A DNA stretch of 64,000 nucleotides from a virus: IMG/VR virus record IMGVR_UViG_3300000115_000005; one strand, written 5' to 3'. The stretch's first letter is position 1, and each line of letters opens with the position of its first letter. The notes under the pieces were generated by a model. That model was not told the DNA's origin, did no database searches, and saw nothing but the letters and a program-made list of their open reading frames with translations. Position numbers and translations under genes: made by a program. Shown here in pieces: positions 1 through 57,273 of the stretch.

Positions 1-90
1 GATATAACGATCAATAAAATTTCTCTTCTATTGTAAATGGAGAATTTTATTGTCCAGTTATTTTTTTCTACGGCACTCCAAGTTCTTACT

Positions 91-297
91 TTACTTGCTG
101 TTGTTAAATAGTTTGATGTTAGTTTCAAGAATCTCTTTTGCATATTTGGACATTTCTGTTACAGTTTCAACGGTCTTATCCATGTATGTATGTAATTCTT
201 TAACTGAATTCTTTTTAGCAATATCATTTAATTGATTTAAAAACTTGACTTGGCTATCAATTGTTGTTGATACTAAGTTGATTGGATTAATAAACAT
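91..297 (-). CDS. phasin-like small amphipathic protein
   Basis: 68 aa, helical and amphipathic; AAGGAG RBS; late promoter and a TGC-N3-GCA box upstream. Confidence 0.45.
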   Translation of the reverse strand: MFINPINLVSTTIDSQVKFLNQLNDIAKKNSVKELHTYMDKTVETVTEMSKYAKEILETNIKLFNNSK

Positions 298-317
298 ATA
301 AATCTCCTTAAAATAAT

Positions 318-325
318 TATTTATA
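318..325 (-). promoter_or_regulatory. T4-type late promoter TATAAATA
   Basis: exact TATAAATA on the minus strand, 20 nt before the ATG at 297. Confidence 0.75.
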
Positions 326-332
326 AATTTTA

Positions 333-349
333 TATTGTGCGTTGCAATA
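333..349. promoter_or_regulatory. palindromic operator, PhaR-box-like
   Basis: TATTG-TGCGTTG-CAATA containing TGC-N3-GCA. Confidence 0.4.
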
Positions 350-430
350 ATTGGGGCAAATCTATTAAATTACTACCCATATTAAAGTAAACTCATTATA
401 CATATTGGTGTGCTTTTTCAGGTGTTACTA

Positions 431-859
431 TTATAGATCACCTTCTTTTCTATTTTCACTATAATGAGCATCAAACTTACCTCCAGGATATCTACTCTCG
501 AGCTTTTCAATATTTTCTTGTATTACTTCATCTGGTTTTAGTCCCATTGCGGTACATGAATTTACCCAATACCAAATAATATCACCTAACTCTCTCTTGA
601 TATGAAATTGTGTTTTTTCACTCATAGGTTTATCTTGAAATAAACACTTCTTTACAATTTCAGCTAATTCACCACCTTCTGATGCAATACCAATGGCACC
701 TGTTAATAATCTGGCTGTATTCACACCACTTTTAGAATCAATTGCAGCCATTCTTTCATGTAACTTATTTGTTGAGCCAGAGGTTTCAGAGGTCACCTTA
801 GTAACAAACTCTTGATATTTTTTTAAATCTATCAATTTATCACCCTTTCTTATTTTCAT
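431..859 (-). CDS. mazG: MazG-like nucleotide pyrophosphohydrolase
   Basis: GIASEGGELAEIVKK, RELGDIIWY and NIEKLESRYP motifs. Confidence 0.9.
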   Translation of the reverse strand: MKIRKGDKLIDLKKYQEFVTKVTSETSGSTNKLHERMAAIDSKSGVNTARLLTGAIGIASEGGELAEIVKKCLFQDKPMSEKTQFHIKRELGDIIWYWVNSCTAMGLKPDEVIQENIEKLESRYPGGKFDAHYSENRKEGDL

Positions 860-1259
860 TTAAAATTCTTATGTTTTTACCTGATACTTTTACCATAATC
901 CAGTCATTGTAATAGTCCTCCCGTTCAAGGACACGCCTCTCCATCTGTTCCTTCAACTCTAAGTAAGCACAATCAGACCTATTAGAGCAAAGATATAATA
1001 TCTCTCTAATAAATTTATCTTCTCCGTGTTTTTTGACATCATCAATAAGAGTATTGTTTGAGCCCCAATACTTTTTCCAATCTGATGGTTTTCTAATCTT
1101 CTTTTTTTTACCTTTTACTTGTTTGTAACCGGCTTTAGTGAAGAATTTCTTTCCAATGTATCGTTTTTTATCTACAAGATTATGTATGCAATAAACGAAA
1201 CCAAAAGAATTGCCAATATCTGATTCATTAAATTCATGTCCATTGTAAGTCCAATTCAT
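840..1259 (-). CDS. denA: GIY-YIG endonuclease (T4 endonuclease II-like)
   Basis: GFVY..KRYIGKK, DWKKYWGS, FIREILYLC, YYNDWI; downstream of nrdB as in T4-like phages. Confidence 0.8.
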   Translation of the reverse strand: MNWTYNGHEFNESDIGNSFGFVYCIHNLVDKKRYIGKKFFTKAGYKQVKGKKKKIRKPSDWKKYWGSNNTLIDDVKKHGEDKFIREILYLCSNRSDCAYLELKEQMERRVLEREDYYNDWIMVKVSGKNIRILNENKKG

Positions 1260-1402
1260 TCATCTCCAATCTTCGCTTCTTCTAAATCAATGTAACTGGA
1301 ACAGAAAGGACAATACATAGGGTCCGTTTCTGTTCCTTCTACGTCATATTCTATTGTATATGATGATTCACAAGTATCACAAGTATATTGTATAGTTTTC
1401 AA
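1256..1402 (-). CDS. small zinc-ribbon protein (48 aa, not in ORF track)
   Basis: TTG start adjacent to the nrdB stop; CDTC and CPFC motifs; TGA overlaps the denA ATG. Confidence 0.7.
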   Translation of the reverse strand: MKTIQYTCDTCESSYTIEYDVEGTETDPMYCPFCSSYIDLEEAKIGDE

Positions 1403-2374
1403 TTAGGCAGCTTTTCCCCACACATCTCCCCATTTTCCTTTCATAGCACCTTTAGCATAATCAGTTGCTCTGTTTTCAAAAAAGTTCGTGTGTGTGGGTG
1501 CATTAATCATACCTTCGACCCATAATAATGGATTTCTTTTCACCTTAAATATACCTTTTAGTCCTAAGCTGATTAATCTTCTATCAGCTATGTACCGTAT
1601 ATATTGTTTTACATCTTCTGGTTTAAGATCATCCATTGGCCCCATTTTAAAAGCTAAGTCAATAAATTTATCTTCTAGTTCGACCATCTTTGTTGCAATC
1701 GTATAAATTTTACCTTTCAGATCATCATTCCAGATTTCTCTGTTTTCTTCTATGTATGTTCTGAATAATTTAATCATTGATTCGGCGTGTTGTGTTTCAT
1801 CAACAATTGACCAAGTAACGATTTGACCCATACCAACCATTTTACCATGTCTTGGAAAATTTAATAACATAATGAATGACGAAAATAATTGCATACCTTC
1901 AGTAAAAGCTGAGAACACAGCAATATGTGTTGCTGTTGATTCTTTTGTACCATTCTTTGATGATAACTCCATTACATAATCATGTTTAGCTCTCATCTCT
2001 TCATAGTCGGCAAATTCTGAATATGTTGATTCAGGCATACCAAGTGTTTCAATCAAATGAGAATAAGCTGCGATATGTAATGCTTCACGAGCCGCAAACC
2101 CAGCTAACATCATTCTTACTTCTGGTTGTGGGAAATGTGGTAAATAATTCTTTACATAACCACCTGCAACATCAATATCACCTTGAGTGAAAAATCTAAA
2201 AATATTTGTAAGAAAAGCTTTTTCTTCTTCAGAAAGCTTATTCTTCCAATCTTTTACATCTTCATTCATTGGCACTTCTGTGTGCATCCAATGTGATTGT
2301 TCATGTTTCAGCCACGCATCATAAGCCCATGGATAATTAAATGGTTTATAATATGTTCTTTCGTCTTTTAGCAT
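1403..2374 (-). CDS. nrdB: ribonucleotide reductase class I beta subunit
   Basis: FFTQGD, EALHIAAYS, FTEGMQLFSSF, DETQH, NFFENR. Confidence 0.97.
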   Translation of the reverse strand: MLKDERTYYKPFNYPWAYDAWLKHEQSHWMHTEVPMNEDVKDWKNKLSEEEKAFLTNIFRFFTQGDIDVAGGYVKNYLPHFPQPEVRMMLAGFAAREALHIAAYSHLIETLGMPESTYSEFADYEEMRAKHDYVMELSSKNGTKESTATHIAVFSAFTEGMQLFSSFIMLLNFPRHGKMVGMGQIVTWSIVDETQHAESMIKLFRTYIEENREIWNDDLKGKIYTIATKMVELEDKFIDLAFKMGPMDDLKPEDVKQYIRYIADRRLISLGLKGIFKVKRNPLLWVEGMINAPTHTNFFENRATDYAKGAMKGKWGDVWGKAA

Positions 2375-2497
2375 TTATACTTCCTTCTTTTGAAATAGTC
2401 CTGAAATCTTTGATTGTATCACTTTCGCCCACCAAGGTTGAGGAAAGTTCCAACCAATTAAAGCACCTAAAAATAACCATAAAAGTGTATCAAACAT
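2375..2497 (-). CDS. small membrane protein (40 aa, not in ORF track)
   Basis: MFDTLLWLFLGALIGWNFPQPWWAK; AAGGA RBS; stop abuts the nrdB ATG. Confidence 0.65.
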   Translation of the reverse strand: MFDTLLWLFLGALIGWNFPQPWWAKVIQSKISGLFQKKEV

Positions 2498-2511
2498 TTA
2501 TTTTTCCTTTT

Positions 2512-3708
2512 TTAAGCCTTATACTCGGCAGCTTCCTCTGAACCGCTTGTTGCTGAACCTTCAGTATAAGAATGTTTACCTGTTCCTGCTAATGCACCAT
2601 CTTTAACAATAGTGTATTCAGTTCTTTGCTCTTCACCATCAAATAATTTTTCAAGTATTTCTCTCGTACCAGCTGCGTATCTAGCTTGAGCTGTGAGTGA
2701 GGTACCTGATGTATGAGGTGTCATACCATGATGAGGCATACTTCTCCAAGAATGGTCATTTGGTGCAGGTTGTGGGAACCAAACATCACCGGCATAACCA
2801 GCTAATTGACCTGATTCAAGTGCATCAACAATTGCTTGTCTATCACAAATCTTACCACGAGCCGTGTTTACTATGTATGCACCTTTTTTCATTTTTGAAA
2901 TTAATTCTGCATTAAATAGATTTTCGGTTTCAGGGTGTAGTGGGCAATTAATTGTTACAACATCTACCGTGGAAACTAAAGATTCGACATTATCATGATA
3001 AACTAAATTTAACTCTTCTTCTACTTCATCTGATAATTTATGCTTATCAAAATAATGCAATTCAACATCAAAAGCTTTTAGTTTTCTAAGTGCATCTAAT
3101 CCAATACGACCAGCTGCAACTGTACCAACTTTCATACCCTCTAAATCATAAGACCTTGAAACTGCATCAGCAATGTTCCAACCACCTTCATTTACAATCT
3201 TATGTTGAGTATGATAATCTCTAACCAATGCAAGAACCATCATTACAATATGTTCTGCAACTGACCTTGAATTACAGTATGTTACTTCCATCACGTCCAC
3301 GCCATTGTCCATGGCGGCCTGCAAGTCAACGTGATCTGAACCTATACCTGCTGTAATCGCCATTTTTAAGTTTGGTGCTGATTCCATTTTTTCTCTTGTG
3401 AGATAATATGGCCAGAATGGTTGAGATATAACAACATCTGCATCAACTAATTCTTTGTCTGCTGTACAACCTTCTCCATCTTTATCTGAGGTAACGACCA
3501 ACTCATGGCCATTTGATTCTAAAAATTCTCTAAGACCCAATTCACCTGATACACAACCAAGTAATTCACCGGGATTAAAATCAATAGCTTTTGGTGATGG
3601 TAATGTTTGACCATCAGGATATTTTTCAATTACTGGTAGATTTTCTATTGCATAATCTTTTGGCATACCACCAGTTGGATCGTCATATAAAATACATAAA
3701 ACTTTCAT
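2512..3708 (-). CDS. fdh: NAD-dependent formate dehydrogenase
   Basis: ISQPFWP, TAGIGSDHVDL, CNSRSVAEH, VAAGRIG, NTARG, GDVWFPQPAP and MTPHTSGTSL, all FDH signature motifs. Confidence 0.96.
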   Translation of the reverse strand: MKVLCILYDDPTGGMPKDYAIENLPVIEKYPDGQTLPSPKAIDFNPGELLGCVSGELGLREFLESNGHELVVTSDKDGEGCTADKELVDADVVISQPFWPYYLTREKMESAPNLKMAITAGIGSDHVDLQAAMDNGVDVMEVTYCNSRSVAEHIVMMVLALVRDYHTQHKIVNEGGWNIADAVSRSYDLEGMKVGTVAAGRIGLDALRKLKAFDVELHYFDKHKLSDEVEEELNLVYHDNVESLVSTVDVVTINCPLHPETENLFNAELISKMKKGAYIVNTARGKICDRQAIVDALESGQLAGYAGDVWFPQPAPNDHSWRSMPHHGMTPHTSGTSLTAQARYAAGTREILEKLFDGEEQRTEYTIVKDGALAGTGKHSYTEGSATSGSEEAAEYKA

Positions 3709-3729
3709 TAGTTTTCCTTTCTTATTGGT

Positions 3730-3936
3730 TTATTTTACAATACATAAATCTTTTGAGGCATCTAGAATATCTCTACCATCATAGAACCAAACATAACTTG
3801 TAATTAAAACACCATTGTCTGTTACATCACATTTTTTACCTAATGATATAGCCAAATGGCCTTTAAACATTTCTGGTACTGATGCACAACCAATTAAAAA
3901 AATTGGCATTAATAATAATAATAATCTTTTAAACAT
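3730..3936 (-). CDS. lipoprotein
   Basis: likely start MFKRLLL; signal peptide and lipobox LIGC. Confidence 0.65.
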   Translation of the reverse strand: MFKRLLLLLMPIFLIGCASVPEMFKGHLAISLGKKCDVTDNGVLITSYVWFYDGRDILDASKDLCIVK

Positions 3937-3940
3937 TTCA

Positions 3941-4735
3941 TTAGCCTCTTGTTGTATTTGCAAGGTCTTCCATCATCTCTTTTTGTTTTAGATCAAGACT
4001 TGCAAGTTTCTTTTCATATTCACCGATAGGGTGATCATATACACCTCTAAAAAATTGAAGTTTTTTAAAAGCGGTAAATCTACCTCTTAAACCATCTTTA
4101 ATTCTTTGCCATGGGCTTAAACCATCACGAATATTTCCATAATAGTTTAAATATTCCAATGTACCATGGTGCTTGAAAAACAAGAAAGATGGGGGTACTT
4201 TTGTAACAGCATCATTGTTGTTTACCCAACGGTGATGATCGAAGCTAAGACTATTTACAAATCTTTTATTACCAACTCTAGGTGAACCAAAAGTGTATAG
4301 TGTTAATGATTTAAAAATGCCTTGTAATCTGGCGGCACAAATAGTGGCCATTGCGGCTCCTAAACTATGACCAGTTATAGTACAAACTTTACCTTTATGC
4401 TCATCAACATAAGTTTCAATTTGATCCCATAATTTTTCAAGTTCACCATAAAATCCATCATGAACTCTACCAGCAACCTGACTCTTTTGTTTCCATGCCT
4501 TTAAGTCAGCAACAACATCACTTGCTACATCAGGTTCAGTACCTCTGAATACAAATGTTATCTCATTATCACTTGTGCAAACATAAGCTTGAGCACCATC
4601 GTGGTCAAGAAAGTCAACTGTTTTATAGTTCATTTCTTTCATAATTTGACTTTGTATATTAGTAGTCAAATCTTCATAAACGAGGCTAGATAATTCACAA
4701 TATTTTAAATCGTTATATCTCAAATCGGTTTTCAT
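3941..4735 (-). CDS. class 3 lipase (alpha/beta hydrolase)
   Basis: FRGTE, VHDGF, TGHSLGAA, TFGSPRVGN, NNNDAVTKVP, YDH. Confidence 0.92.
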   Translation of the reverse strand: MKTDLRYNDLKYCELSSLVYEDLTTNIQSQIMKEMNYKTVDFLDHDGAQAYVCTSDNEITFVFRGTEPDVASDVVADLKAWKQKSQVAGRVHDGFYGELEKLWDQIETYVDEHKGKVCTITGHSLGAAMATICAARLQGIFKSLTLYTFGSPRVGNKRFVNSLSFDHHRWVNNNDAVTKVPPSFLFFKHHGTLEYLNYYGNIRDGLSPWQRIKDGLRGRFTAFKKLQFFRGVYDHPIGEYEKKLASLDLKQKEMMEDLANTTRG

Positions 4736-4742
4736 AATACTC

Positions 4743-5153
4743 CTAATTTAGTTTTTCAATTCTAACTTTTACATCATTAGTTTTATCTTTATAGTTCTGA
4801 ACAGCAGCTTTGATGGCATCTTCAGCTAAAATTGAGCAATGTATTTTTACTGGTGGTAAACATAGTTCTTTTGCAATCTCAACATTCTTAATTGATTCTG
4901 CATCATCAATCGTTCTACCTTTTACCCATTCAGTCATTAAACTACTGCTTGCTATGGCTGAACCACAGCCATATGTTTTAAATTTTGCATCTGTAATGAT
5001 ACCATCATCATTTACTTTTATTTGTAATTTCATTACATCACCACAGGCCGGTGCACCGACCATACCCGTACCAACATCTGAGTCATTCTTATTCATTGAT
5101 CCTACATTTCTAGGATTTTCATAATGATCTATAACTTTTTCGCTATATGCCAT
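4743..5153 (-). CDS. iscU: Fe-S cluster scaffold IscU
   Basis: MAYSEKVIDHYENPRNVG, GAPACGDVM, KTYGCGSAIASSS, LPPVKIHCS. Confidence 0.97.
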   Translation of the reverse strand: MAYSEKVIDHYENPRNVGSMNKNDSDVGTGMVGAPACGDVMKLQIKVNDDGIITDAKFKTYGCGSAIASSSLMTEWVKGRTIDDAESIKNVEIAKELCLPPVKIHCSILAEDAIKAAVQNYKDKTNDVKVRIEKLN

Positions 5154-5295
5154 CTTCTTTCTCCCATTTTTCTTTTAAATAATGTCTATATTTTTGAGCA
5201 TCTATATCGGTATTAAAAGGTCCACCAAAAACTTTGATGTAACCAATAACCCAGTAACCTGTTTTACCTTCTATAATTTCTAACCAGTCATACAT
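5143..5295 (-). CDS. hypothetical protein (50 aa, not in ORF track)
   Basis: ATG overlaps the nrdA TAA (TAATG); MYDWLEIIEGKTGYW; fills the gap to iscU. Confidence 0.55.
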   Translation of the reverse strand: MYDWLEIIEGKTGYWVIGYIKVFGGPFNTDIDAQKYRHYLKEKWEKEDGI

Positions 5296-7316
5296 TAACC
5301 TTCACAAGCGGTACATTCATCTGATTCTGGCTGTTGGTTGAGGTGTATCATCAACTCACTATATCCTCCAATATATTCATTCTCCAGATAAATCTGTGGT
5401 ACTGTTGTAACAGGTCGACCTGTTACTTCAGCTGCTGTTTTACCTAGTTCTTTAATATTAACAAAATCAAAAGTAATACCTCTTTCAGAAAACTCATCTT
5501 TAGTTTTTTGACACCAACCGCAAGTTAAAGTTCCATAAATGATTGCTTGTGTCCTTGTTTCACCTTCTGCGATTGCTTTTAAATCTAAACCTTTAATTAC
5601 ATCTCTTTCAACTTTTCTTGATATTTTATCGGCTTTACCAATCTTTTCTGAACGACAATAGTAAAGAGTTTTAAGCCCTTGCTTCCATGCCATAAAATGT
5701 GTTGCGTGTAAATATTTTACATTTACGTCCGGCCGAAAGAATAGGTTAACGGATTGAGCCTGGTCAATGTAATTTTGTCGGTCAGCTGCGTGCTCCACAA
5801 CCCATCTTTGGTCAATTTCCATACTCGTTTTGAAGATGTCCTTTTCCCGGTCATTGAGTAAATTAAGGTGTTGTACGGATCCATCGGTAGCGATAATGTT
5901 GCTCCAGATTTTCTGATAGTCAAGATCATTTTTTGCTCTTTCTGTAATTATTTTATCAAGAAATTTGTTTTTATGTAGATATGCACCAGATAAAGTATCT
6001 TGCCTATAAGCATTTGCACGATATGGTTCTATACTAGGGCTTGTATTACCCATAATAATACTACTAGAAGCATTGGGAGCAATAGCCATAAGGTGAGAAA
6101 ACCTACGGCCAGTACCAGCAGCATCAGGAGCTTCTCCTCTAATTTTACCGAGATCCAAATTTGCTTCATCTAATCCCCTCCTAATATGTCTAAAGATTTC
6201 CACGTTTCTTGACTTTGCAAGTGCGGATTCATAAGGTATTCCATGATCTTGTAAATGAGCATGGAAACCAAGAGCACCAATACCAATGCTACGTTCATTT
6301 ATAGCACTATATTTTGCACGGTGTACAGCATCAGGACTATTATCAATAAAATACTGAAGCACATTATCTAGCATCTCCGCTACGTCTTTAAGAAAAAGAG
6401 TATTATCTTTCCATTTATCAAAATATTCTAGATTGAGTGAAGATAAACAACATACAGCTGTTCTTTCTTCGTTAGTAGGTAATATAATTTCTGAACAAAG
6501 ATTTGATTGTCTAATACTTAATCCTTTTTTCTTTTGAAACTCTGGCATTTCTCTATTACTCGTATCAATAAAATGTAAGTATGGTTCGCCAGTCATCATT
6601 CGTATTTCAAGTATTTTTTGCCATAACTTTTTAGCCGATATTTTTTCTTTTATTTCTCCCGAATGTGGATCTATTAGTTCCCATGTATCATCAAATTCTT
6701 CATCAACCATGGCATTTTCAATAAGATTCATAAATTTATCGGTAATGTTAATACCATGATGCAAATTCATTGTTCTCATATTAGGATCGCCAGTTGGCTT
6801 TCTTATATCTAAAAACTGTATAATATCAGGATGAGATACATCAAGATAAGCTGCATAAGAACCTCTGCGAGTTCTACCTTGTCTATATGCTAAACTTGAA
6901 GCATCATATGTTTTTAAGTGTGGCATTACACCAGTTGATTTATCATCGCTGGAACGTATTCCTAGACCAATCCCGACACCACCACCTAACATTGATAACC
7001 AGTTCACCTCGGAGAGAGTGTCAACCAAACCTTCTCTACTATCATGAAGATAAGGGAGGAAACAAGAAATAGGAAGGCCACGCTTACTACGACCAAAAGA
7101 TAAGATAGGAGTAGAATAAGACAACCAATGACTACTAGAATATTCATATAGACGTTGTGCATGAGCATCATCAGTTCCGAAAGCTTTTGATACATAAGCA
7201 AATCTCTCCTGTGGTGAAACTTCTTCCTCTTTCATGTAAGATTCTTTTAATCTTCTTAAACCTAGAGTATCGAATAGTTTATCTTTTTCTACATCTATTG
7301 AAATTTTGTGATTCAT
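5295..7316 (-). CDS. nrdA: ribonucleotide reductase class I alpha subunit with inserted glutaredoxin domain
   Basis: PISCF, QSNLCSEI, AIAPNASSS, KTLYY, then CGWC..TVPQI..IGG, then C-terminal CTACEG; likely start MNHKIS at 7316. Confidence 0.95.
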   Translation of the reverse strand: MNHKISIDVEKDKLFDTLGLRRLKESYMKEEEVSPQERFAYVSKAFGTDDAHAQRLYEYSSSHWLSYSTPILSFGRSKRGLPISCFLPYLHDSREGLVDTLSEVNWLSMLGGGVGIGLGIRSSDDKSTGVMPHLKTYDASSLAYRQGRTRRGSYAAYLDVSHPDIIQFLDIRKPTGDPNMRTMNLHHGINITDKFMNLIENAMVDEEFDDTWELIDPHSGEIKEKISAKKLWQKILEIRMMTGEPYLHFIDTSNREMPEFQKKKGLSIRQSNLCSEIILPTNEERTAVCCLSSLNLEYFDKWKDNTLFLKDVAEMLDNVLQYFIDNSPDAVHRAKYSAINERSIGIGALGFHAHLQDHGIPYESALAKSRNVEIFRHIRRGLDEANLDLGKIRGEAPDAAGTGRRFSHLMAIAPNASSSIIMGNTSPSIEPYRANAYRQDTLSGAYLHKNKFLDKIITERAKNDLDYQKIWSNIIATDGSVQHLNLLNDREKDIFKTSMEIDQRWVVEHAADRQNYIDQAQSVNLFFRPDVNVKYLHATHFMAWKQGLKTLYYCRSEKIGKADKISRKVERDVIKGLDLKAIAEGETRTQAIIYGTLTCGWCQKTKDEFSERGITFDFVNIKELGKTAAEVTGRPVTTVPQIYLENEYIGGYSELMIHLNQQPESDECTACEG

Positions 7317-7332
7317 CAGTTTTGTTATCCTA

Positions 7333-8007
7333 TTAATATATTGCTTTAGTAACATTTGGAAAGTTATCTCCTATTATAGACCAGCATTGCTTTGCAATTT
7401 CCATATGCTCTTTTTGCGTGCCATTTGACATTCGCAATCCACAATAATGTATCCATGATCTTAAAGTTCCCGACATATAAAGTTTACTCATCATAAGACC
7501 TTCAGGTAAAATACATCTAGCTTGTTCTTTTGCCATACCCTTATCTACTAAATGTTTATAACTATCAATTGCGAACTCTTTAATTTTTTTCTGCCTTTGT
7601 TCAAAGACATATTGTAAATAACTATGAGCTGGATTTTCTTCGTCCATCATAATACTATTTTGTCTATTTTTAGTATCTTGTAATCTTGATTCTCTTTGTG
7701 CAAATTCCAACTCTTTTGTTGGATCTGCGTATCTCTGACTAAACTCTTGAAAAGAAAATGATCTATGTCTCAATATTTGTCTTCCAATATCTCTTGTAGT
7801 GTTTATTTCTAACACAATATGCACCATCTCAAAAGGAGACCAATGTTTGTTATCAATTAAATATTTTATTAATTTGTCAGAACTTTCAAAATTATTTTGA
7901 TTACTTGGATTAGATACTCTAGCCATATAGATTATTGCATCTTCTGGAGTTTTACCTTTCAAATCGCCAAAGAATGACGAAATGCCAACTAAATGTACAT
8001 TTTTCAT
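7333..8007 (-). CDS. thyX: flavin-dependent thymidylate synthase
   Basis: HWSPFE and RQILRHRSFSFQEFSQRY (ThyX RHRx7S motif). Confidence 0.97.
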   Translation of the reverse strand: MKNVHLVGISSFFGDLKGKTPEDAIIYMARVSNPSNQNNFESSDKLIKYLIDNKHWSPFEMVHIVLEINTTRDIGRQILRHRSFSFQEFSQRYADPTKELEFAQRESRLQDTKNRQNSIMMDEENPAHSYLQYVFEQRQKKIKEFAIDSYKHLVDKGMAKEQARCILPEGLMMSKLYMSGTLRSWIHYCGLRMSNGTQKEHMEIAKQCWSIIGDNFPNVTKAIY

Positions 8008-8008
8008 A

Positions 8009-9049
8009 TTATACTTTCTTCCAGAATGTTAATTTACTAAGAGCTCTTAAGCAACAAAACGTATTTGTACTTATAATCTTCTTGAGTTCGTTTTGCGTAT
8101 ATCCAGATAAAATCATCTCATTTATATCTTTTTCTTTTATTGATTGCGGCCAAATAACAATGTGATGTCCACGCTTCACAGCATCATACATTAGTTTACA
8201 TACCTCTACATTTCTTGGTTCATTGTCAAAGATTAGTATTTTATCTTGTTTATCTACATTTGTCAAGTCCTCCGCAATAATTGATAAATTAGCATCGCCT
8301 GATGCAATACAATTGTCTAAGAACAACGAATCAAGAGGACCTTCAACAATATAAACTATATCATCTAAATCCACACGGTCAAGCCCATAAACTAATTTAT
8401 TTTCAGATTTATTTGTTCTTAGTGTTACATATCTTAATCTACTATCACCTGATTCAAGAGCTCTTCCTGAGATCGCAAAAATCTCATCATTCTCATCATA
8501 GAATGGTATTACAAGCCTTGCATCTGGTGTGAGTTTCATATCATTATCTGGCATCATACTCTGAACAAACATTTTATAATCAGGTGTAAACAATAATTTA
8601 CTAAAATACTTGTTCGGTATTTTTCTTTGCTTTGCATATGACTTACAAAAGTGATTATCTGGTAAATCTGATAACCACTCACCATGTTCAAAGTTTTGTT
8701 TTTTTACTTTTCCAAATTTTGGTGGCTTGATATTTTCAAATTTCGGCTTCTGGTAATTTGAAAATCCCGACTCACCTGACTTATATCGCTCGAGTATGAA
8801 CTCTTTGTATATCTCTGCATCAAACTGTTTAATGAAATTGCCAAGACTGAGGCTAGAGCCACAGTTATGACAACGGTAGAATAAATTATTTCCTTTAGAA
8901 TAGACATAGCCCCTTGCTTTTAATAAATTTTTCTTACTATCACCACAAATTGGGCAAGAAAAATTCCACAAGTAGTCTTTCTTCTGTTTGAAGTTTCTTA
9001 ATCTATGTGATAGTAAACGGATGTATTTTGATTCAACTGATAATGACAT
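8009..9049 (-). CDS. 61: DNA primase, T4 gp61-like
   Basis: CPICGDS..CHNC Zn finger; VEGPLDS and FDNEPRN TOPRIM motifs. Confidence 0.95.
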   Translation of the reverse strand: MSLSVESKYIRLLSHRLRNFKQKKDYLWNFSCPICGDSKKNLLKARGYVYSKGNNLFYRCHNCGSSLSLGNFIKQFDAEIYKEFILERYKSGESGFSNYQKPKFENIKPPKFGKVKKQNFEHGEWLSDLPDNHFCKSYAKQRKIPNKYFSKLLFTPDYKMFVQSMMPDNDMKLTPDARLVIPFYDENDEIFAISGRALESGDSRLRYVTLRTNKSENKLVYGLDRVDLDDIVYIVEGPLDSLFLDNCIASGDANLSIIAEDLTNVDKQDKILIFDNEPRNVEVCKLMYDAVKRGHHIVIWPQSIKEKDINEMILSGYTQNELKKIISTNTFCCLRALSKLTFWKKV

Positions 9050-9074
9050 AGTTACTACTATATCATGTATAAAA

Positions 9075-9584
9075 CTATATTACAAGTGATAATATGGTGG
9101 ATAAGTCTAGTTTACCCAAGAAAAATGAAGCCGTAACTGCTACACCTAAAACAAGCCATTTATATTTTTCTATTTCACCTACAGCTTTAGACCACCTACT
9201 TTTATCTATTTTTTTATGGTCTAATAAATCTTTTCTGAGAGAATCGAGTCTTAAATTAATAGATGATTCTATTTGATCTATTCTCTCATGTACAGATGTG
9301 ATTTGAATAGGCACTTGGTCTATTCTATCATGAACTTCTCTTGAAACTGAGGTAACTCTAGAATGTAATTCTTTTATGTCATTCTTTACATTACCTTTTT
9401 GCTTCTCATTTTGATCTAGCTTTTCTTCATGTAGTGATAACATTTGTAAAACATTGACGTTTAACTCCTGTATCTTATCAATGGATATGGATAGTTTTTC
9501 TAATAGTTTATTGGTTTGATTTATATCTCTTTTCAATAAACCAACATCAAGCTTTAGTTCTTGTATTTCTCTAGTGTCTGGCAT
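9075..9584 (-). CDS. coiled-coil protein with C-terminal TM helix (possible holin-like)
   Basis: heptad pattern; KWLVLGVAVTASFFLG tail; near the spanins. Confidence 0.6.
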   Translation of the reverse strand: MPDTREIQELKLDVGLLKRDINQTNKLLEKLSISIDKIQELNVNVLQMLSLHEEKLDQNEKQKGNVKNDIKELHSRVTSVSREVHDRIDQVPIQITSVHERIDQIESSINLRLDSLRKDLLDHKKIDKSRWSKAVGEIEKYKWLVLGVAVTASFFLGKLDLSTILSLVI

Positions 9585-9811
9585 TACAAAATCGCTGAAA
9601 TTGTTGCAATGGATTTCTCTATTGTCCTTTGTAGTTCTTGTTTACGAAATAACTCATCAGATGTTTTAGTTATGGCATTAGAAGCTTCCAAGCCCTCTAA
9701 AAGGTCTTTATATTCAGATGGACTAATATTACCATCTACATATTCTTTTTCTATTTCTTTAAATGCAATTTCAGCTTCTGTAAGAGTAATTGTATCTTCT
9801 TTCATCTTCAT
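9584..9811 (-). CDS. hypothetical protein
   Basis: likely start MKMKED at 9811 with AAGGA RBS. Confidence 0.65.
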   Translation of the reverse strand: MKMKEDTITLTEAEIAFKEIEKEYVDGNISPSEYKDLLEGLEASNAITKTSDELFRKQELQRTIEKSIATISAIL

Positions 9812-9818
9812 ATTTTCC

Positions 9819-9983
9819 TTAACTGAGTTTAATTGGTGCAAATGCCCAAGCACCCGCAACTATTAAGAGTATGGTCAAAATAGCTATACCATATATCCAA
9901 AATTTAATTATTGGTCCCCATTCTGCACTTCCTGATTGCTTTTTGGGATCTTTTTCCCAACTCAACCATTTTAGCCATTTCAT
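9819..9983 (-). CDS. small single-pass membrane protein (54 aa, not in ORF track)
   Basis: MKWLKWLSWEKDPKK..IIKFWIYGIAILTILLIVAGAWAF; ATGA overlap with the upstream gene. Confidence 0.65.
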   Translation of the reverse strand: MKWLKWLSWEKDPKKQSGSAEWGPIIKFWIYGIAILTILLIVAGAWAFAPIKLS

Positions 9984-10387
9984 CTGGTTTTGCTCCCGAT
10001 AACTCGTTGCATTTGTTCAGCAGCTGCTGAAATTTGTTTCAATTTTAATCTACAATAGGTATTTGAAACATTACCTCCGGTATCATATCGAGATTTAAAA
10101 TCCAAAATTAAATTATGTAAATCTACTAAAAGATTATGTGTATCTTCATTTCTTGGTATGTGCTGTGTATAATTAACAGCAAACATTGAACTATTATATA
10201 GTTGATCAACAAGTGCATAATTAAAAACTCTAGCATCACAAAATGGTATTGAAATCTGTGATATAGTTTTAATTTGAGTAACACTCATATATTCATTATT
10301 ATCATATTTTGATGTTCTATAAGCATCAATCACACTACAACCAGATAAGATTAATATTACACTAATTAACGCTATCGTCTTTTTCAT
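9980..10387 (-). CDS. lipoprotein
   Basis: signal peptide and lipobox LSGC. Confidence 0.75.
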   Translation of the reverse strand: MKKTIALISVILILSGCSVIDAYRTSKYDNNEYMSVTQIKTISQISIPFCDARVFNYALVDQLYNSSMFAVNYTQHIPRNEDTHNLLVDLHNLILDFKSRYDTGGNVSNTYCRLKLKQISAAAEQMQRVIGSKTR

Positions 10388-10745
10388 AGTAACCCTTATA
10401 CTTTAATATAATTATTCTTTGTGTATTAATAAAGTTTCTTATTTCAGCCATATTGATTGATAATTTTTCATAACCTTCATCTGTAAGGCCGAATAAAACT
10501 AAATCTTCATTTTTCTTTTTTAGTTTCTTCCAAACTTTATCAACATTATCTGGTGTAATTACAACCCATTCTATTTTTTCAGGTTGTAATGGTTTTGGTG
10601 ACTCTATATTTAGTTTAATTCTTTCAACGGCCACCTCTTTTACTTCAATGGGTTGTACATCATCTTCCCAAAATTTAGGTAGTATTGAACACCCGTTAAT
10701 GAAAAATAGGGATGTAAGAAGGATTAGCGATAGTTGGACATTCAC
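10362..10745 (-). CDS. o-spanin-like outer-membrane lipoprotein
   Basis: lipobox INGC, Pro-rich segment, YEKLSINMAEIRNFI..Q..II..YK.YY tail; overlaps the i-spanin candidate. Confidence 0.7.
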   Translation of the reverse strand: MNVQLSLILLTSLFFINGCSILPKFWEDDVQPIEVKEVAVERIKLNIESPKPLQPEKIEWVVITPDNVDKVWKKLKKKNEDLVLFGLTDEGYEKLSINMAEIRNFINTQRIIILKYKGYYEKDDSVN

Positions 10746-11193
10746 GATTTATTGTACTTTCTGTTTTTGCATTTCGTTCTTTTTCTGTGATAGTTGCACC
10801 TGAAGCTATTTCTAGGCATCTAAGTGCGTTTCTTGTGCCACGATTAATAAGTCTTTCCATTGCTCTAGGTTTTCTCATGGCTATTTTTCCAATATCTCTA
10901 GATTCACCTTTTGCATTTACATTAAACTTATCAAAAAGATTTTTTACTTCATTTCTTTGTCTTTCTAATTCATCACTCACCTCTTGATTGATTTCTTTTA
11001 TCATGTCAATATCATACATCATCTGGTCAATTACATCATTTTGATTAGACAAGGATTCTTCTAGTATTTTATTATTTGATTCAGATGTGGCTAACTGTGC
11101 CTTGAGATTTGTAACATACCAAAGTCCACCTGCAATTATAATAACAATACCAAGATAACATAAAACTTTTATCACACTTAAAACATTAAACAT
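10696..11193 (-). CDS. i-spanin-like inner-membrane coiled-coil protein
   Basis: N-terminal TM helix, coiled coil, C-terminal Cys; overlaps the lipoprotein gene. Confidence 0.7.
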   Translation of the reverse strand: MFNVLSVIKVLCYLGIVIIIAGGLWYVTNLKAQLATSESNNKILEESLSNQNDVIDQMMYDIDMIKEINQEVSDELERQRNEVKNLFDKFNVNAKGESRDIGKIAMRKPRAMERLINRGTRNALRCLEIASGATITEKERNAKTESTINRECPTIANPSYIPIFH

Positions 11194-11647
11194 TTTTCCT
11201 CTTCATATACATTATGAATGGCATCAATTTTTTCTTTTTTCTTTTTACTGGAACTCCTGGTTCACCTTGAGGGCCAACACCAAGACCTGCGACTTTTCCA
11301 CCACCTACACTATTTACTGGTGCATCTTCGTTTCTTGGTACACAATTAGGCACCCTTTTACCCTTTTTCATTTTAAAACCAACTTGTTTATGTGAATCCC
11401 AACAAGCTTCCTTTTTAAGTGTTTCTTCGTCCATGAAATGTCCACTTTTTGGTATTTTTACGTTTACTGTGTCTGCTGTTTTACCTTGACCAGCCTTTAA
11501 AAGTTCTTTCATATATTTTGCACTATATGGCCTACCAGCTTCTTTCAATGATCTTTTTTTACGACCAGCACAATGAGCCTTTTGACTAAAGCCTTTGGGG
11601 TTGCTACAATCAATACTTCTTTTGTACTTGTCCGACCAACTACTCAT
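11186..11647 (-). CDS. basic modular protein, probable head-internal protein
   Basis: CSNPKGFSQKAHC and CWD..KRVPNCVP modules separated by LKE/NE linkers. Confidence 0.65.
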   Translation of the reverse strand: MSSWSDKYKRSIDCSNPKGFSQKAHCAGRKKRSLKEAGRPYSAKYMKELLKAGQGKTADTVNVKIPKSGHFMDEETLKKEACWDSHKQVGFKMKKGKRVPNCVPRNEDAPVNSVGGGKVAGLGVGPQGEPGVPVKRKKKKLMPFIMYMKRKNV

Positions 11648-12035
11648 CTATTTTCCTTAGTTTTTCTGCTGTACTCATATCAATTGATATTGATGATGAA
11701 TATAAATTATTATTTTTTATACCTAATATCTTATCTGGCATAATATTTAAAAATGTTAGATAAGTTTTTAATATAGAATAATCTTCTTTATCTACTTTAA
11801 AAAATAATAATCTACTTGTTACTGATGGTCCAAATACATTAACTAAAACTGTTAAGTGATTTAAAACCAACCTTTCTTTTATATCACTTGGTTTTCTGTG
11901 CCTACGAAAGAGTCTTTTTAAATAATTTATTCTTTTTAAATCATCTTTAAATTCACTCATTACATAGTTTGGTTTCTCATAAGCTTTTATAGCATATAAA
12001 ATCCAGTTTTCATTATTTAAATTTTCAAAAGACAA
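11640..12035 (-). CDS. conserved T4-like phage hypothetical protein
   Basis: EFKDDLKRINYLKRLF..ERLVLNHL..LVNVFG. Confidence 0.8.
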   Translation of the reverse strand: MSFENLNNENWILYAIKAYEKPNYVMSEFKDDLKRINYLKRLFRRHRKPSDIKERLVLNHLTVLVNVFGPSVTSRLLFFKVDKEDYSILKTYLTFLNIMPDKILGIKNNNLYSSSISIDMSTAEKLRKIDE

Positions 12036-22152: not shown

Positions 22153-22835
22153 TTAGCACAATCATCACGAATTAAACTATGCCAGGTTCCATTAAAATCA
22201 CCTGGAGGGAATGGATTATTCATATCCACATATGTCAAAAATTTACCATGTAACCCATACTCATGTAAATGGGCTTTCATCATATCTTCACCGATCATTG
22301 AAACCTTTTGATCGTAATAGTGGTTCATATTATTGTAAATAGTCATTCTCTTATTCATAATATTAGATGAGCTAAATGCAAATTGATCGTTACCAAAATC
22401 TTTTTCTGGAACCATTCTACAATTTGGTATATAAAGTACCCATGGATTCATTTTATAGAATGGTATAACAATATTTAAAGCATAATCAGGCCTCGATTTA
22501 ATCACCCAATCATAATTCTTTTTTAATTCCATTTCTTTTTTAATTTTTAATTCACAGGACCTCTGCATACTATAAAGCATTGACACCGTAAAACGAGGTG
22601 GGTGGTTTATAGCATCTGGAGTATTTTTATATCTTTCATCATAATCACCTTTAAGTTCATTTTCTAGAAGAGATGAAACTGGTTTATATAATTTTATATA
22701 CTCTTCAGCTTCATCAGAATTCCATGAATGTATAAATGTATCAACATCATAGTGATCTAGTAAATTCTTCTTGTGATATTCATAACCTTTTTCAAAACTT
22801 CTAGGTTGACCGGATAAACATAGGGCTATTTTCAT
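22137..22835 (-). CDS. putative glycosyltransferase
   Basis: MKIALCLSGQPR, YDWVIKSRPD, NDQFAF. Confidence 0.65.
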   Translation of the reverse strand: MKIALCLSGQPRSFEKGYEYHKKNLLDHYDVDTFIHSWNSDEAEEYIKLYKPVSSLLENELKGDYDERYKNTPDAINHPPRFTVSMLYSMQRSCELKIKKEMELKKNYDWVIKSRPDYALNIVIPFYKMNPWVLYIPNCRMVPEKDFGNDQFAFSSSNIMNKRMTIYNNMNHYYDQKVSMIGEDMMKAHLHEYGLHGKFLTYVDMNNPFPPGDFNGTWHSLIRDDCAKWKKR

Positions 22836-23407
22836 TTTGAATACTTTAAATTAATTTTAGAGTGGTGTTGTTCATCAGCTCTAACTTTTTTAATTAAATC
22901 AGAAAGTTTAGCATCTTCTTGCATTTGATAATACTCAATTGCTCTTTTAGGTGCAGGCACGTTTTCAATTTGTCCATTCTCAACCATATAGAGGTATTCT
23001 GTGTAAGACTTAACTGCTTCACGTTCAAAATAAAAAATCATTTTGTGTGCGGTTTTAGGAAAAAATACATAAAGAAAAAAATAAAAGACCCAAAAAGTTG
23101 CCTGTGAAAAAATAACTAACCATCTTTCAAAGAAATTAGGTCTAGCTATTTCTATAAAAAACATTAAATGTTGTCTTTCATTTTCGGCTTCTGCAATTAA
23201 TTCTCTAATCATAGGTCCATGGCCAGTTTCCATTTTTCTTAAACTTCTCAAATGAATCCACATTCCTGCAACAATACCAGGAACTCCAGCTACAGTTTCT
23301 AGAACTACAGCTCTATGACCATATCTCTTAGCAAAAAAAGTGTCTGCCAAAAATCTAAAAAACTTTGTCATTGATTTAGCAAACCAATCTGATATTTTTC
23401 TTTTCAT
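22832..23407 (-). CDS. aox: alternative oxidase (ubiquinol oxidase)
   Basis: LETVAGVPG, EAENERQHL, FEREAVKSY and VRADEQHH di-iron motifs; likely start MKRKIS. Confidence 0.95.
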   Translation of the reverse strand: MKRKISDWFAKSMTKFFRFLADTFFAKRYGHRAVVLETVAGVPGIVAGMWIHLRSLRKMETGHGPMIRELIAEAENERQHLMFFIEIARPNFFERWLVIFSQATFWVFYFFLYVFFPKTAHKMIFYFEREAVKSYTEYLYMVENGQIENVPAPKRAIEYYQMQEDAKLSDLIKKVRADEQHHSKINLKYSK

Positions 23408-24276
23408 GTAGAATACTTCATTTGTATGATGTGTCGCCAAGCAGGAACTCTATCGTATTGGTGTACAATACAAAAGTCTTTACTACCATCAGATGTTTTA
23501 ACAGATCCACTTTCCATAATAGGGCTTGATTCTAACAAGTGTGACTTAAATTCTTGTATCTTAGCTGGATCTGCCGTTGTACCTAATTGACAAGCCCAGC
23601 CATCTTCTGACTTAAAATATTTTGATTTTTGTTTGTAGGGGGATTGTGAAACCATAAAGTTAAATGTAGATTGGTCACATATTGGTATAGGTTTACCCAT
23701 GCAAGATGAAAATATATTAATCATTAGAGATTTCATAGCATAACCTGTGCCAGCTAAAACACCTACATTATAGATTTCATTTTCTTTGAAAATTTCATGT
23801 ACATATGGTCCATAAGTTTCAAGAAGATTTTGATTACCCCATGGTTCATTTTTATATAAAATACTTTCAGAGGAGAAAAAATAGTCATAATGATCATTAT
23901 TATTAAAGTAAAAACAATGTTTCTCTTTATACTCTTCTATCCATTTAACTGGATCTTTTTGGAATATAACGTCTTTAACATCTGTTGTAATAACCCAATC
24001 ATACTCTGGTGATTTTTTTAAATAATCATATATGTGTATAAATCTTTCAACATGAGGTGGCATTTTTGAATCATGAACTAAATTACCCTCATCATCTTTA
24101 TTGAAACCTATGATTTTAAAACCAGCTTGTTCAACTTTGATAACTGTTTCTTTATCACAATTTAATAATATTAAAACTTTATCACCTTCAAATCCACTTT
24201 GATTAATTGAATTACACCAATATTGTAGTGTATTCCAATCATAATTACTAGCACATCCTATAATCAAGTTACGCAT
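23404..24276 (-). CDS. putative glycosyltransferase
   Basis: TDVKDVIFQ (DxxD), NVGVLAG, DQSTFN, IVHQYDR. Confidence 0.75.
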   Translation of the reverse strand: MRNLIIGCASNYDWNTLQYWCNSINQSGFEGDKVLILLNCDKETVIKVEQAGFKIIGFNKDDEGNLVHDSKMPPHVERFIHIYDYLKKSPEYDWVITTDVKDVIFQKDPVKWIEEYKEKHCFYFNNNDHYDYFFSSESILYKNEPWGNQNLLETYGPYVHEIFKENEIYNVGVLAGTGYAMKSLMINIFSSCMGKPIPICDQSTFNFMVSQSPYKQKSKYFKSEDGWACQLGTTADPAKIQEFKSHLLESSPIMESGSVKTSDGSKDFCIVHQYDRVPAWRHIIQMKYST

Positions 24277-31562: not shown

Positions 31563-32381
31563 TTAACTATCCTTCATTTTTGTGATTTGATTTCTTGGCA
31601 CTAGCATTTTATCCTTGTCTATAAAGAAGGAGTCTAAACTAGGACTAGGTGGTAAGTCAAGCTTTTTTTTCTTGTTTACCTTTTTTATTATAGTTTTAGG
31701 TTTTTCATTTTTATATTTTCTGTAAGATTGATTTGCGGCTATGAGTAATAATACCGCAAGAGGATCAAAAACAAATATGATTATAAAAATTACAGTTCTT
31801 ACAGCTTTATCTATAAATTGAGGGTCACCTTCACCATATAAAAACTCGGCGATAAACATAATTGGTCCAACTTCTGCTTTTAATATATTCTCTTGCCTCA
31901 GCAGAGGTAATTTTTCTTTTGTAAGTTCTACCAATTGTGCTTGTGCATTTCGTATTTGTCTATCTGTTGTTCTTGCAACTTTCTCAGGATCATCACCTGC
32001 CTGTTTATACAGATATGTTAATCTTTCTCTAATTAAGTTTTCTCTTAATTCTATTTGTTTAATTTGCACAGAATTTGCACCAACTACTATGTTGGATTCA
32101 ATATGAGCTCTTGAGAGAAAGCCAAATATACCCATAGAAGTAATTAACATCACAAGTATGATAGCTGTAATGAAATATACTTTCATGACTAAAATAGTTT
32201 CTTTCCAGTTATTATATAACCAAGATACTGTTACAAGTTTTGCCACTTCTAAAACAGCACCCATTACAATGATTGGCCAAAATGATCCTGGAAAAATCTG
32301 TGCTAAACCTATTACAGAATAATAAGCTGCAATTACTGATAATCCTATTGCTGTAATAAAAGGTAAAATTGCTTGTATCAT
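31563..32381 (-). CDS. multi-pass membrane protein with coiled coil
   Basis: three N-terminal TM helices, ITSMGIFGFLS, VGPI, FVFDPLAV. Confidence 0.75.
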   Translation of the reverse strand: MIQAILPFITAIGLSVIAAYYSVIGLAQIFPGSFWPIIVMGAVLEVAKLVTVSWLYNNWKETILVMKVYFITAIILVMLITSMGIFGFLSRAHIESNIVVGANSVQIKQIELRENLIRERLTYLYKQAGDDPEKVARTTDRQIRNAQAQLVELTKEKLPLLRQENILKAEVGPIMFIAEFLYGEGDPQFIDKAVRTVIFIIIFVFDPLAVLLLIAANQSYRKYKNEKPKTIIKKVNKKKKLDLPPSPSLDSFFIDKDKMLVPRNQITKMKDS

Positions 32382-48797: not shown

Positions 48798-49069
48798 TTA
48801 AGTGTAGAATCGCCATTAAAAATTGAATATTTTGTTTTTTGATTTGCATGGCCTTTTTCAGACTCATATGATACAAACTTTGAAATCATTTCTAGTTTAT
48901 CATGATATTCAGCCATTTTACCGAGTTCACTTTCTACACCTTCTGTCCAAGCCGTATGATCATGTATCGCCATTGGGTTATCAATCATAATCTCAACATT
49001 CATTCTGTGTTTATCCATTTGAGAGATAAGATGATTTTTAAGTGTAGTAATTATTTGTTCTGTTCTCAT
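48794..49069 (-). CDS. hypothetical protein
   Basis: coupled ORF; KHRMNVEI..IHDH..ELGKMAEYHDKLE. Confidence 0.75.
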   Translation of the reverse strand: MRTEQIITTLKNHLISQMDKHRMNVEIMIDNPMAIHDHTAWTEGVESELGKMAEYHDKLEMISKFVSYESEKGHANQKTKYSIFNGDSTLK

Positions 49070-49689
49070 TTTTTACTCCTTCGCTCCACTTTTTTTAATA
49101 ATTTATTTCTTTTTTCTTTAGCTCTTTTAAGTGCAAAAGGACTTGCATGATCAATCATTCTAATACCATTCATATGATCTAGTTCATGAAAGTAACATTT
49201 GGCTGATAAACCATCAAACCTTTGTGTCATTTCTTTACCTTCAGCATTAGTGAATTTACCTACAACCCACTTAGGCCTTCTCACACTTATTATTAAACCT
49301 GGATAAGATAAACATCCTTCTTTAGAAATTTCTTCTTGTTCTGATTGATCTTCTATTTCAGGATTAATACAGGCAATACATATCTCTTCATTACCTATAA
49401 TAAAAAATCTTTCATTTATACCAACTTGATTTGCTGATAAACCAATACCGCCACTATGTTTCATTGTCAACCACATTCTGTGTAATAAAGTATTCCAATA
49501 TTCATCAGGTAAACTATCAACAAATTTTGGCATAGAAGTTTTAAGTATAACATCATTTTCACTTACAAAAGGCAAAAGTTTATCTTTAGCAAAATCAGTA
49601 TTTTTTTTAATTGATCCTCTAACTGTATCAACAGTAGTATTTTTAACTCCTATACCTGTATCAATTTTTAATATATTTTCGTCACTCAT
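49066..49689 (-). CDS. def: peptide deformylase
   Basis: GIGLSANQVG, EGCLS, HELDHMNG; likely start MSDENI. Confidence 0.95.
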   Translation of the reverse strand: MSDENILKIDTGIGVKNTTVDTVRGSIKKNTDFAKDKLLPFVSENDVILKTSMPKFVDSLPDEYWNTLLHRMWLTMKHSGGIGLSANQVGINERFFIIGNEEICIACINPEIEDQSEQEEISKEGCLSYPGLIISVRRPKWVVGKFTNAEGKEMTQRFDGLSAKCYFHELDHMNGIRMIDHASPFALKRAKEKRNKLLKKVERRSKK

Positions 49690-49883
49690 TTTAAAACCCA
49701 ATCCTCTGCGTTAGCTTCAACATCAAATTCATTATGTGCTATTATACTATTAACTAATATTTTATCTTTATAACATTTTGCAATATAACTATTTCCACCA
49801 CCATGTACTTTGTAATAAACTTTAGCTACTTTTGTACCATCATCTGAATAAAACTCTGACAAAAATTCTTCTTTTTCTAACAT
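49686..49883 (-). CDS. hypothetical protein
   Basis: coupled ORF ending AEDWVLK downstream of gp46. Confidence 0.7.
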   Translation of the reverse strand: MLEKEEFLSEFYSDDGTKVAKVYYKVHGGGNSYIAKCYKDKILVNSIIAHNEFDVEANAEDWVLK

Positions 49884-55542: not shown

Positions 55543-55543
55543 A

Positions 55544-57257: not shown

Positions 57258-57273
57258 TCACTTTTAATTATAT

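Follow-up and report, generated by a model that had tools for sequence, protein, structure and literature searches.

A formate dehydrogenase gene carried as cargo between the ribonucleotide reductase genes of an uncultured marine T4-like phage

The stretch of DNA analyzed here, a 64,000-nucleotide part of IMG/VR virus record IMGVR_UViG_3300000115_000005 (hereafter the window), encodes on its minus strand (2512..3708) a 398-amino-acid metal-independent, NAD+-dependent formate dehydrogenase (FDH). The gene, fdh, is the phage's own, intact, and under purifying selection. Its best explanation is as an auxiliary metabolic gene (AMG) that probably turns formate into NADH for energy during infection; we infer the activity of the enzyme, the timing of its expression, its energetic role, and the identity of the host. 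The whole record is 103 kb long, with a CheckV completeness estimate of 57%, and carries T4-type genes for DNA polymerase, the major head protein, gp46, gp44, gp45, gp41, UvsX, and the gp61 primase, clamp and clamp loader included. Its source is an uncultured marine T4-like myovirus with a genome estimated at approximately 180 kb.

A reading of this DNA made from its letters and open reading frames (ORFs) (the sequence-only reading) had described an intact 398-residue FDH, a description confirmed by family models, by alignment with solved structures, and by inspection of individual residues; it had named no strand, and the gene, an ATG-to-stop ORF, runs on the minus strand from 3708 to 2512. 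The product matches the Pfam families 2-Hacid_dh_C (PF02826, E 2.7e-50) and 2-Hacid_dh (PF00389), the two-domain architecture of D-2-hydroxyacid dehydrogenases in which a catalytic domain accompanies a Rossmann NAD domain. It scores 655.1 bits against the NCBIfam equivalog NF005750 "NAD-dependent formate dehydrogenase" (cut-off 329) over residues 2-384 of 398. Against the Protein Data Bank (PDB), phmmer aligns it gap-free over residues 2-397 with the FDH of Pseudomonas sp. 101 (PseFDH; 2go1/2nac, E 3.6e-187), to which it is about 72% identical; the solved enzymes from this organism (2NAC/2NAD/2GO1) and from Moraxella sp. C-1 (2GSD) align over the same gap-free span at E values near 1e-187.

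Residue numbers in the phage enzyme coincide with those of PseFDH. All of the motifs named in the sequence-only reading are in place, namely R284 (in NTARG), Q313 (in FPQPAP), H332 (in TPH), AAGRIG at 198-203, and D221 within YFDKH, as are P97, F98, I122, and N146 of PseFDH; the Pseudomonas and Moraxella enzymes have these residues and the two-domain architecture in common with the phage protein. Catalytic and cofactor positions, including D221 and A198, are invariant across 57 viral and 79 cellular relatives. Asp221 makes PseFDH specific for NAD+ (PMC4410396), and from D221 the phage enzyme is predicted to share that specificity. The product is thus expected, on sequence grounds, to be an active, single-subunit, cofactor-free, NAD+-specific FDH. 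It differs from the Pseudomonas and Moraxella enzymes in being phage-encoded, in belonging to a separate, well-supported marine clade, and in having K222 in place of R222. This R222K replacement, which lies beside the NAD-specifying Asp (codon at approximately 3045-3043), was seen in 30 of the 57 viral FDHs, distributed over two separate clades, and in one of the 79 cellular ones; it may reflect recurrent viral adaptation or shared ancestry.

Ownership of the gene by the phage is evident from its surroundings. The order nrdA-iscU-(lipase)-fdh-nrdB recurs on more than 15 independent IMG/VR contigs from different metagenomes (contigs with the repeated order are L002-L011, L014, L015, L064, L066, and L070), and the relatives that reproduce the gene order of the window, with the lipase present or absent, form the group with 87-97% FDH identity. 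No viral contig shares flanking genes with cellular fdh loci, and the reverse comparison, of cellular loci with viral flanks, agrees with the sole exception of L100, a contig from a single-amplified genome (SAG). The claim that fdh is flanked by phage genes, and is not host contamination, therefore stands on synteny repeated over many contigs and on the lack of shared cellular flanks. Within the viral clade of the window the dN/dS ratio of fdh is 0.07-0.09, with dS up to 1.1, and its G+C content at third codon positions (GC3), 0.19, is like that of its phage neighbors. Some cellular fragments do exist in IMG/VR, and the phage records with 46% FDH matches in the GenBank-derived set are contaminated assemblies, so that an error of binning or assembly that placed host DNA in a viral contig, or a passenger gene in decay, has to be considered. 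Such an artefact is nevertheless scarcely credible in view of the identical synteny on more than 15 independent contigs, the phage hallmark genes on both sides of fdh and the unshared cellular flanks, the matching GC3, and the strong purifying selection with retention of every catalytic residue. Misassembly and host contamination were rejected on the repeated synteny, the absence of shared cellular flanks, and the existence of relatives with an empty site.

Those relatives (L154 and L155, with NrdB 88-89% identical) have the order nrdA-iscU-nrdB with an 11-nt spacer and no fdh, which bears out the earlier claim that fdh is an insertion. On two other contigs, L008 and L011, fdh alone is inserted, with spacers of 13-14 nt. 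Taken with the empty sites, these loci identify fdh as a gene-sized cargo insertion at a variable spot. An nrdB-based search found fdh in none of 76 further viral contigs with a similar nrdA-nrdB arrangement; fdh is lineage-restricted cargo by this count, although nrdB is too conserved to define the lineage.

No credible FDH is present in any of 50,697 GenBank phage records, the only matches being those 46% ones, in unannotated contaminated assemblies; a megablast search of window positions 1-12000 against GenBank phages likewise gave no match. Relatives of the FDH, 73-97% identical, were found in IMG/VR on at least 69 contigs of uncultured viruses. The description of fdh as a rare phage gene consequently holds among cultured phages and fails overall, given these contigs and one earlier report (PMC7029224). 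Among cells, the best 80 genome matches (one genome per prokaryote species), at 78-82% identity, are overwhelmingly SAGs and metagenome-assembled genomes (MAGs) of Pelagibacteraceae, with a few labeled Rhodobiaceae/Hyphomicrobiales, SAR86, SAR202, or Flavobacteriaceae. A metal-independent FDH occurs in 95 of 301 SAR11-family genomes (our SAR11 tallies for FDH, IscU, and PqqC include one unpublished genome, G073, which leaves the results unchanged), whereas cultured SAR11 Ia strains have been described as having the molybdenum-type fdhF/fdsB instead (PMC3160333).

In a maximum-likelihood (ML) tree the viral and marine cellular FDHs are united in a clade with support 99 that excludes the representative of the classical bacterial FDHs. 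The SAR11 (Pelagibacteraceae) enzymes of this clade are equal in length to the phage enzyme, which differs from them in falling within an all-viral subclade. The viral sequences make up at least three groups: the clade of the window (11 rows, support 100), which has no cellular member; a large viral clade of 18 rows whose sister is a single "SAR86" SAG sequence; and viral FDHs that branch within the Pelagibacteraceae sequences, with identities as high as 92%. A tree constrained to one viral clade is worse by 132 log-likelihood units and is rejected (p-AU 0.00019); fdh has thus moved between cells and phages on several occasions. The tree suggests that the gene was captured from an FDH pool dominated by SAR11-type genomes. 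In the other viral FDH clades fdh adjoins spanin-like, endolysin, or clamp-loader genes and not the genes for ribonucleotide reductase (RNR). Representatives of these clades include G313 (the L026 contig, 196,581 bp, 55% complete) and G312 (127,031 bp, 35% complete); their phages appear to be jumbo phages of an estimated 350-400 kb or so, with a backbone distinct from that of the window's phage.

All sizeable ORFs of the window lie on the minus strand. Read along it, the genes around fdh are those for the primase, thyX, an nrdA-glutaredoxin fusion, a 50-amino-acid ORF, iscU, a lipase, a 68-amino-acid ORF, fdh, a 40-amino-acid membrane ORF, nrdB, a SegE-type GIY-YIG endonuclease, and mazG. The placement of fdh between nrdA and nrdB in the sequence-only reading was thus correct and incomplete, as the 50-amino-acid ORF, iscU, the lipase gene, and two small ORFs share the interval. 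The nrdA gene (5295..7355, minus strand; PF02867, PF00317) encodes a C-terminal glutaredoxin-like domain with a CGWC motif (PF00462 at residues 605-662); matches to NrdA of Pelagibacter podophages end near residue 594, short of this domain. The Fe-S scaffold gene iscU (4743..5153, minus strand; NifU_N, PF01592, E 4e-55) is kept between nrdA and nrdB in the fdh-less L154 and L155. The class-3 lipase-like gene (3941..4735, minus strand; PF01764, E 1.9e-24) is variable cargo, present in L002-L004, L006, and L066 and not in L005 or L007-L011.

Between the lipase gene and fdh lies a small lipoprotein-like ORF (3730..3936, minus strand) whose 68-residue translation has a signal peptide ending in the lipobox LIGC; a Pfam search assigned it to no family, and weak homologs occur near fdh in L013, L035, and L060. 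The 40-residue hydrophobic ORF between fdh and nrdB (2375..2497, minus strand) likewise has no family in a Pfam search. Its stop abuts, and overlaps, the ATG of nrdB (1403..2374, minus strand; RNR small subunit, PF00268, E 1.7e-76), and in relatives such as L002 the gap from fdh to nrdB is only 14 nt. Directly downstream of nrdB is the SegE-type GIY-YIG homing endonuclease gene (840-1259, minus strand), followed by mazG (431-859, minus strand). A mobile endonuclease of this type adjoining the nrdA-nrdB cargo site could promote exchange of cassettes.

The ribosome-binding site claimed for fdh is present as AAGGA (3715..3719, minus strand), 6 nt before the ATG. Spacers in the fdh block do not exceed 21 nt, and a terminator scan found no terminator-like site within them; a promoter scan of the sequence gave 43 promoter-like sites against 45 expected, the level of chance, and we claim no promoter. 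Cotranscription of fdh with the RNR genes, as the sequence-only reading had proposed, is plausible from the common strand, the short and terminator-free spacers, and the stop/start overlap with nrdB, and fdh plausibly sits in a tightly packed nucleotide-metabolism operon.

The same reading went on to propose that FDH, coexpressed with RNR, supplies the electrons for ribonucleotide reduction from one-carbon (C1) compounds. The tight same-strand block that fdh forms with nrdB and the redoxin-fused nrdA, its terminator-free spacers, and the conservation of the nrdA-fdh-nrdB order within the clade of the window fit such a role, as does the analogy of cyanophage genes that raise NADPH and are thought to feed deoxynucleotide synthesis. 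The thioredoxin and glutaredoxin reductases that serve RNR redoxins use NADPH, however, and D221 predicts NAD+ and not NADP+, so that the product would feed respiration and not the NADPH-dependent redoxin chain; a host transhydrogenase would be needed to connect the two. Linkage to RNR is moreover specific to one lineage: RNR genes do not adjoin fdh in the remaining viral FDH clades, fdh is missing from 76 further viral contigs whose nrdA-nrdB pair is similar, and the nrdA-nrdB spacer is a general cargo site that also receives the lipase gene and small ORFs next to the SegE-type endonuclease. With D221 invariant throughout, this part of the earlier proposal lacks support, and we regard a supply of reductant to RNR as unlikely.

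We instead favor the provision of energy. In the infected cell FDH would oxidize formate to CO2 and NADH, and the NADH would go to respiration and ATP synthesis. The formate would come as the end product of the host's tetrahydrofolate (THF)-linked oxidation of methanol, formaldehyde, and methyl groups, with a minor contribution from the phage's own peptide deformylase (49066..49701, minus strand; PF01327, E 4e-36; phrog_2890). Removal of formate would also pull the upstream, ATP-yielding formate-THF ligase step and free THF. Both SAR11 and OM43 gain energy by the THF-linked oxidation of C1 units to formate and thence to CO2, and in cultured SAR11 and in OM43 strain NB0046 the final formate step is carried out by multisubunit molybdenum-type FDHs (PMC3160333, PMC5120137, PMC6794327). 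Unlike these host enzymes, the one-gene FDH would need neither molybdenum cofactor nor Fe-S clusters, and, with no such assembly required, it should work once translated. Host C1 oxidation and oxidative phosphorylation are up-regulated in pelagiphage infection (PMC12753301).

The phage also encodes an alternative oxidase (AOX; 22832..23440, minus strand; PF01786, 215 bits), a possible sink for quinol from FDH-derived NADH, and, as described below, the peptide PqqA. With both in the same phage as FDH, the phage appears to push both ends of C1 dissimilation together with the re-oxidation of NADH: PqqA and FDH would act on the first and last steps, and AOX would aid the re-oxidation. An AOX gene lies 1.4 kb from fdh in the cellular SAG contig L100, where AOX, a flavodoxin-like NAD(P)H reductase, and fdh were all seen within 3.5 kb. 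Eleven of 121 SAR11 genomes have an AOX, 51-54% identical to that of the phage.

Two other fates for the chemistry of FDH were weighed. Running in reverse, the enzyme could reduce CO2 to formate, feeding formyl-THF for purines and formylmethionine; purC and the deformylase gene do occur in the same genome, and yet the reaction is thermodynamically uphill with NADH. Enzymes of the metal-independent FDH class, moreover, reduce CO2 very poorly, and we think this direction highly improbable. Alternatively, the enzyme may serve chiefly to clear formate arising from deformylation, formyl-THF hydrolysis, or ligase reversal, so that free THF is recovered for ThyX and for making purines and the NADH is incidental. 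Genes for peptide deformylase and ThyX occur in the window and one for PurC outside it in the phage genome, and a study of Lake Baikal methylophages tied viral deformylase to the formate pool (PMC7678222). Deformylase yields only one formate per protein chain, however, and nothing points to harmful levels of formate. Folate balancing as the principal function therefore seems doubtful to us; it overlaps with the provision of energy and does not exclude it.

PqqA, a peptide of 25 amino acids, is encoded in the same phage genome at G000:C1:2244-2321 (= L151:2244-2321, minus strand), approximately 16.7 kb before the start of the window, and scores 41.9 bits in Pfam against a cut-off of 21.1; in clade member L013, PqqA lies 73 nt upstream of fdh. 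PqqA is the consumed precursor of pyrroloquinoline quinone (PQQ), the cofactor of methanol dehydrogenase, and is useless without PqqBCDE. A tblastn search with the peptide against all phage records matched 12, of which nine are phages of Methylophilales/Methylophilaceae (Venkman, P19250A, MEP301, MEP401, MEP402, and four Melnitz isolates) and none is a Pelagibacter phage; by this search PqqA occurs among cultured phages only in those of Methylophilaceae. Venkman, Melnitz, P19250A, and MEP301 have intact PqqA ORFs preceded by ribosome-binding sites, unannotated in all four records, and these peptides match the PqqA of the window's phage in type. Phages of OM43/LD28 that bear PqqA span several unrelated lineages. 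The literature search found PqqA, OM43, and phage nowhere mentioned together, and the peptide may be an overlooked signature AMG of phages that infect Methylophilaceae. Ten larger contigs from the other two viral FDH clades gave no PqqA, a weak indication, since all ten are fragments 11-55% complete.

PqqC reaches its family cut-off in none of 151 SAR11 genomes. Because PqqA needs PqqBCDE, SAR11 is no likelier a host than a PQQ-making C1 oxidizer. The PQQ module is present in all Methylophilaceae (PMC6794327), and OM43 strain NB0046 has a multisubunit FDH (PMC5120137). The methylotrophic or C1-oxidizing host of the sequence-only reading is consequently favored by PqqA and the SAR11 PqqC count and disfavored by the FDH phylogeny, which points to a SAR11-type pool; the Methylophilaceae/OM43 affinity for FDH that it had suggested looking for did not appear, with no Methylophilaceae among the best 80 genome matches, a search that included no direct FDH comparison with Methylophilaceae. 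A cellular lineage combining PQQ synthesis with SAR11-type FDH does exist: in the alphaproteobacterial SAGs AG-337-B08 and AG-337-E20 an alpha-type pqqA lies about 1-3 kb from a SAR11-type fdh (L120:10001-10078, L145:8335-8412; L232), and one of the two genomes has a genuine pqqC (345 bits). Five cellular genomes with FDH were searched for a PQQ-alcohol dehydrogenase (TIGR03075), and none had a match above the cut-off.

T4-like Methylophilaceae viruses from Lake Baikal (PMC7678222) encode methanol dehydrogenase, PqqA, and peptide deformylase, and have been proposed to boost C1 oxidation. They have PqqA, deformylase, and RNR in common with the window's phage, whereas the Baikal, OM43, and LD28 methylophages lack FDH, and the window's phage has this last step and not methanol dehydrogenase. 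A transition from SAR11 to OM43 hosts is documented for Melnitz-type myophages and offers a route by which a SAR11-type fdh could have entered a phage of a PQQ-making C1 oxidizer. We tentatively suggest, as a possibility less well assured than the energetic role itself, that the FDH clade of the window consists of marine T4-like "methylophages" of a PQQ-making C1 oxidizer, OM43-like or another streamlined proteobacterium, in which PqqA, FDH, and AOX would form a two-ended booster of C1 dissimilation.

Several considerations weigh against the energetic reading and the host assignments that accompany it. Each formate oxidized yields little energy, and consuming it draws on the C1 units that the phage itself requires for ThyX and PurC. 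We infer even the cellular role of the SAR11-type fdh, which in SAR11 genome L123 is flanked by an ABC transporter, msrA, and selO and not by C1 genes. The host signals conflict, FDH pointing toward SAR11 and PqqA away from it, and the core proteins, PurC, IscU, and AOX are uninformative. The major head protein is 62% identical to that of HTVC008M and 61% to those of OM43 phage Melnitz and of cyanophages, and the best matches of the DNA polymerase are to cyanophages, at 51%. PurC, at 32-41% identity to SAR11 and non-SAR11 genomes alike, gives no host signal, and IscU is 28-42% identical to SAR11 IscU-like genes, with one genome at 72%. Besides the IscU scaffold the phage holds an IscA/ErpA-type carrier (PF01521, G000:C1:604-1008, plus strand).

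A minus-strand cluster (54568-58806) comprises a B12-binding radical S-adenosylmethionine (SAM) enzyme (57274-58806), a split transketolase-like pair (55544-57257), and a GHMP kinase (54568-55542), and may constitute a small-molecule or sugar modification pathway; 2-oxoglutarate (2OG)-Fe(II) oxygenases are encoded at 51592-52272, near this cluster, and at 32378-33016. Two DruA-like genes (PF14236) are found on the minus strand at 47514-48797 and 28017-29135. An ORF at G000 270-614 was considered as a cytochrome c, an identity rejected on the lack of any Pfam family and of a CxxCH motif.

The enzyme itself is an ordinary one, and a viral FDH has been mentioned once in the literature: Zaragoza-Solas et al. 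2020 (PMC7029224) list, in one sentence, formate dehydrogenase among the genes unique to pelagimyophage PMP-MAVG-4, citing the molybdenum/selenium enzyme FDH-H and suggesting a role in the proton gradient, with enzyme type, distribution, phylogeny, and context not covered. A literature search for viral NAD-dependent FDH as an AMG turned up nothing further. PMP-MAVG-4, like the source of the window, is an uncultured marine T4-like phage with an FDH; it measures 179.7 kb at 32.0% GC, against 32.0% GC for the window and 103 kb at 57% estimated completeness for its record, and the two may be close. New here are an FDH clade that is wholly viral, the location of the insertion site together with relatives in which it is empty, the statistical exclusion of one capture event, the case made from cofactor residues against coupling to RNR, and the PqqA link that revives the idea of a methylotrophic host.

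Enzymes of this class are in industrial use for NADH regeneration, and viral variants such as R222K would be cheap to assay. If the phages are indeed methylophages of a PQQ-making host, they would be direct evidence, at the level of genes, that myophages changing hosts carry metabolic genes between the dominant streamlined heterotrophs of the ocean, since the FDH derives from the SAR11 pool; such movement could explain the near-identical FDHs in SAGs and MAGs labeled SAR11, SAR86, SAR202, and Rhodobiaceae. A large flux of labile carbon in the ocean consists of C1 compounds, including methanol, methylated osmolytes, formaldehyde, and formate. That fdh was captured repeatedly and is strongly selected implies that phage production in these hosts is limited by formate oxidation, and also that C1 carbon may be turned into CO2 to a greater extent in infected cells. 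Together, fdh, PqqA, and AOX offer a compact hypothesis of how the phages of streamlined heterotrophs secure energy.

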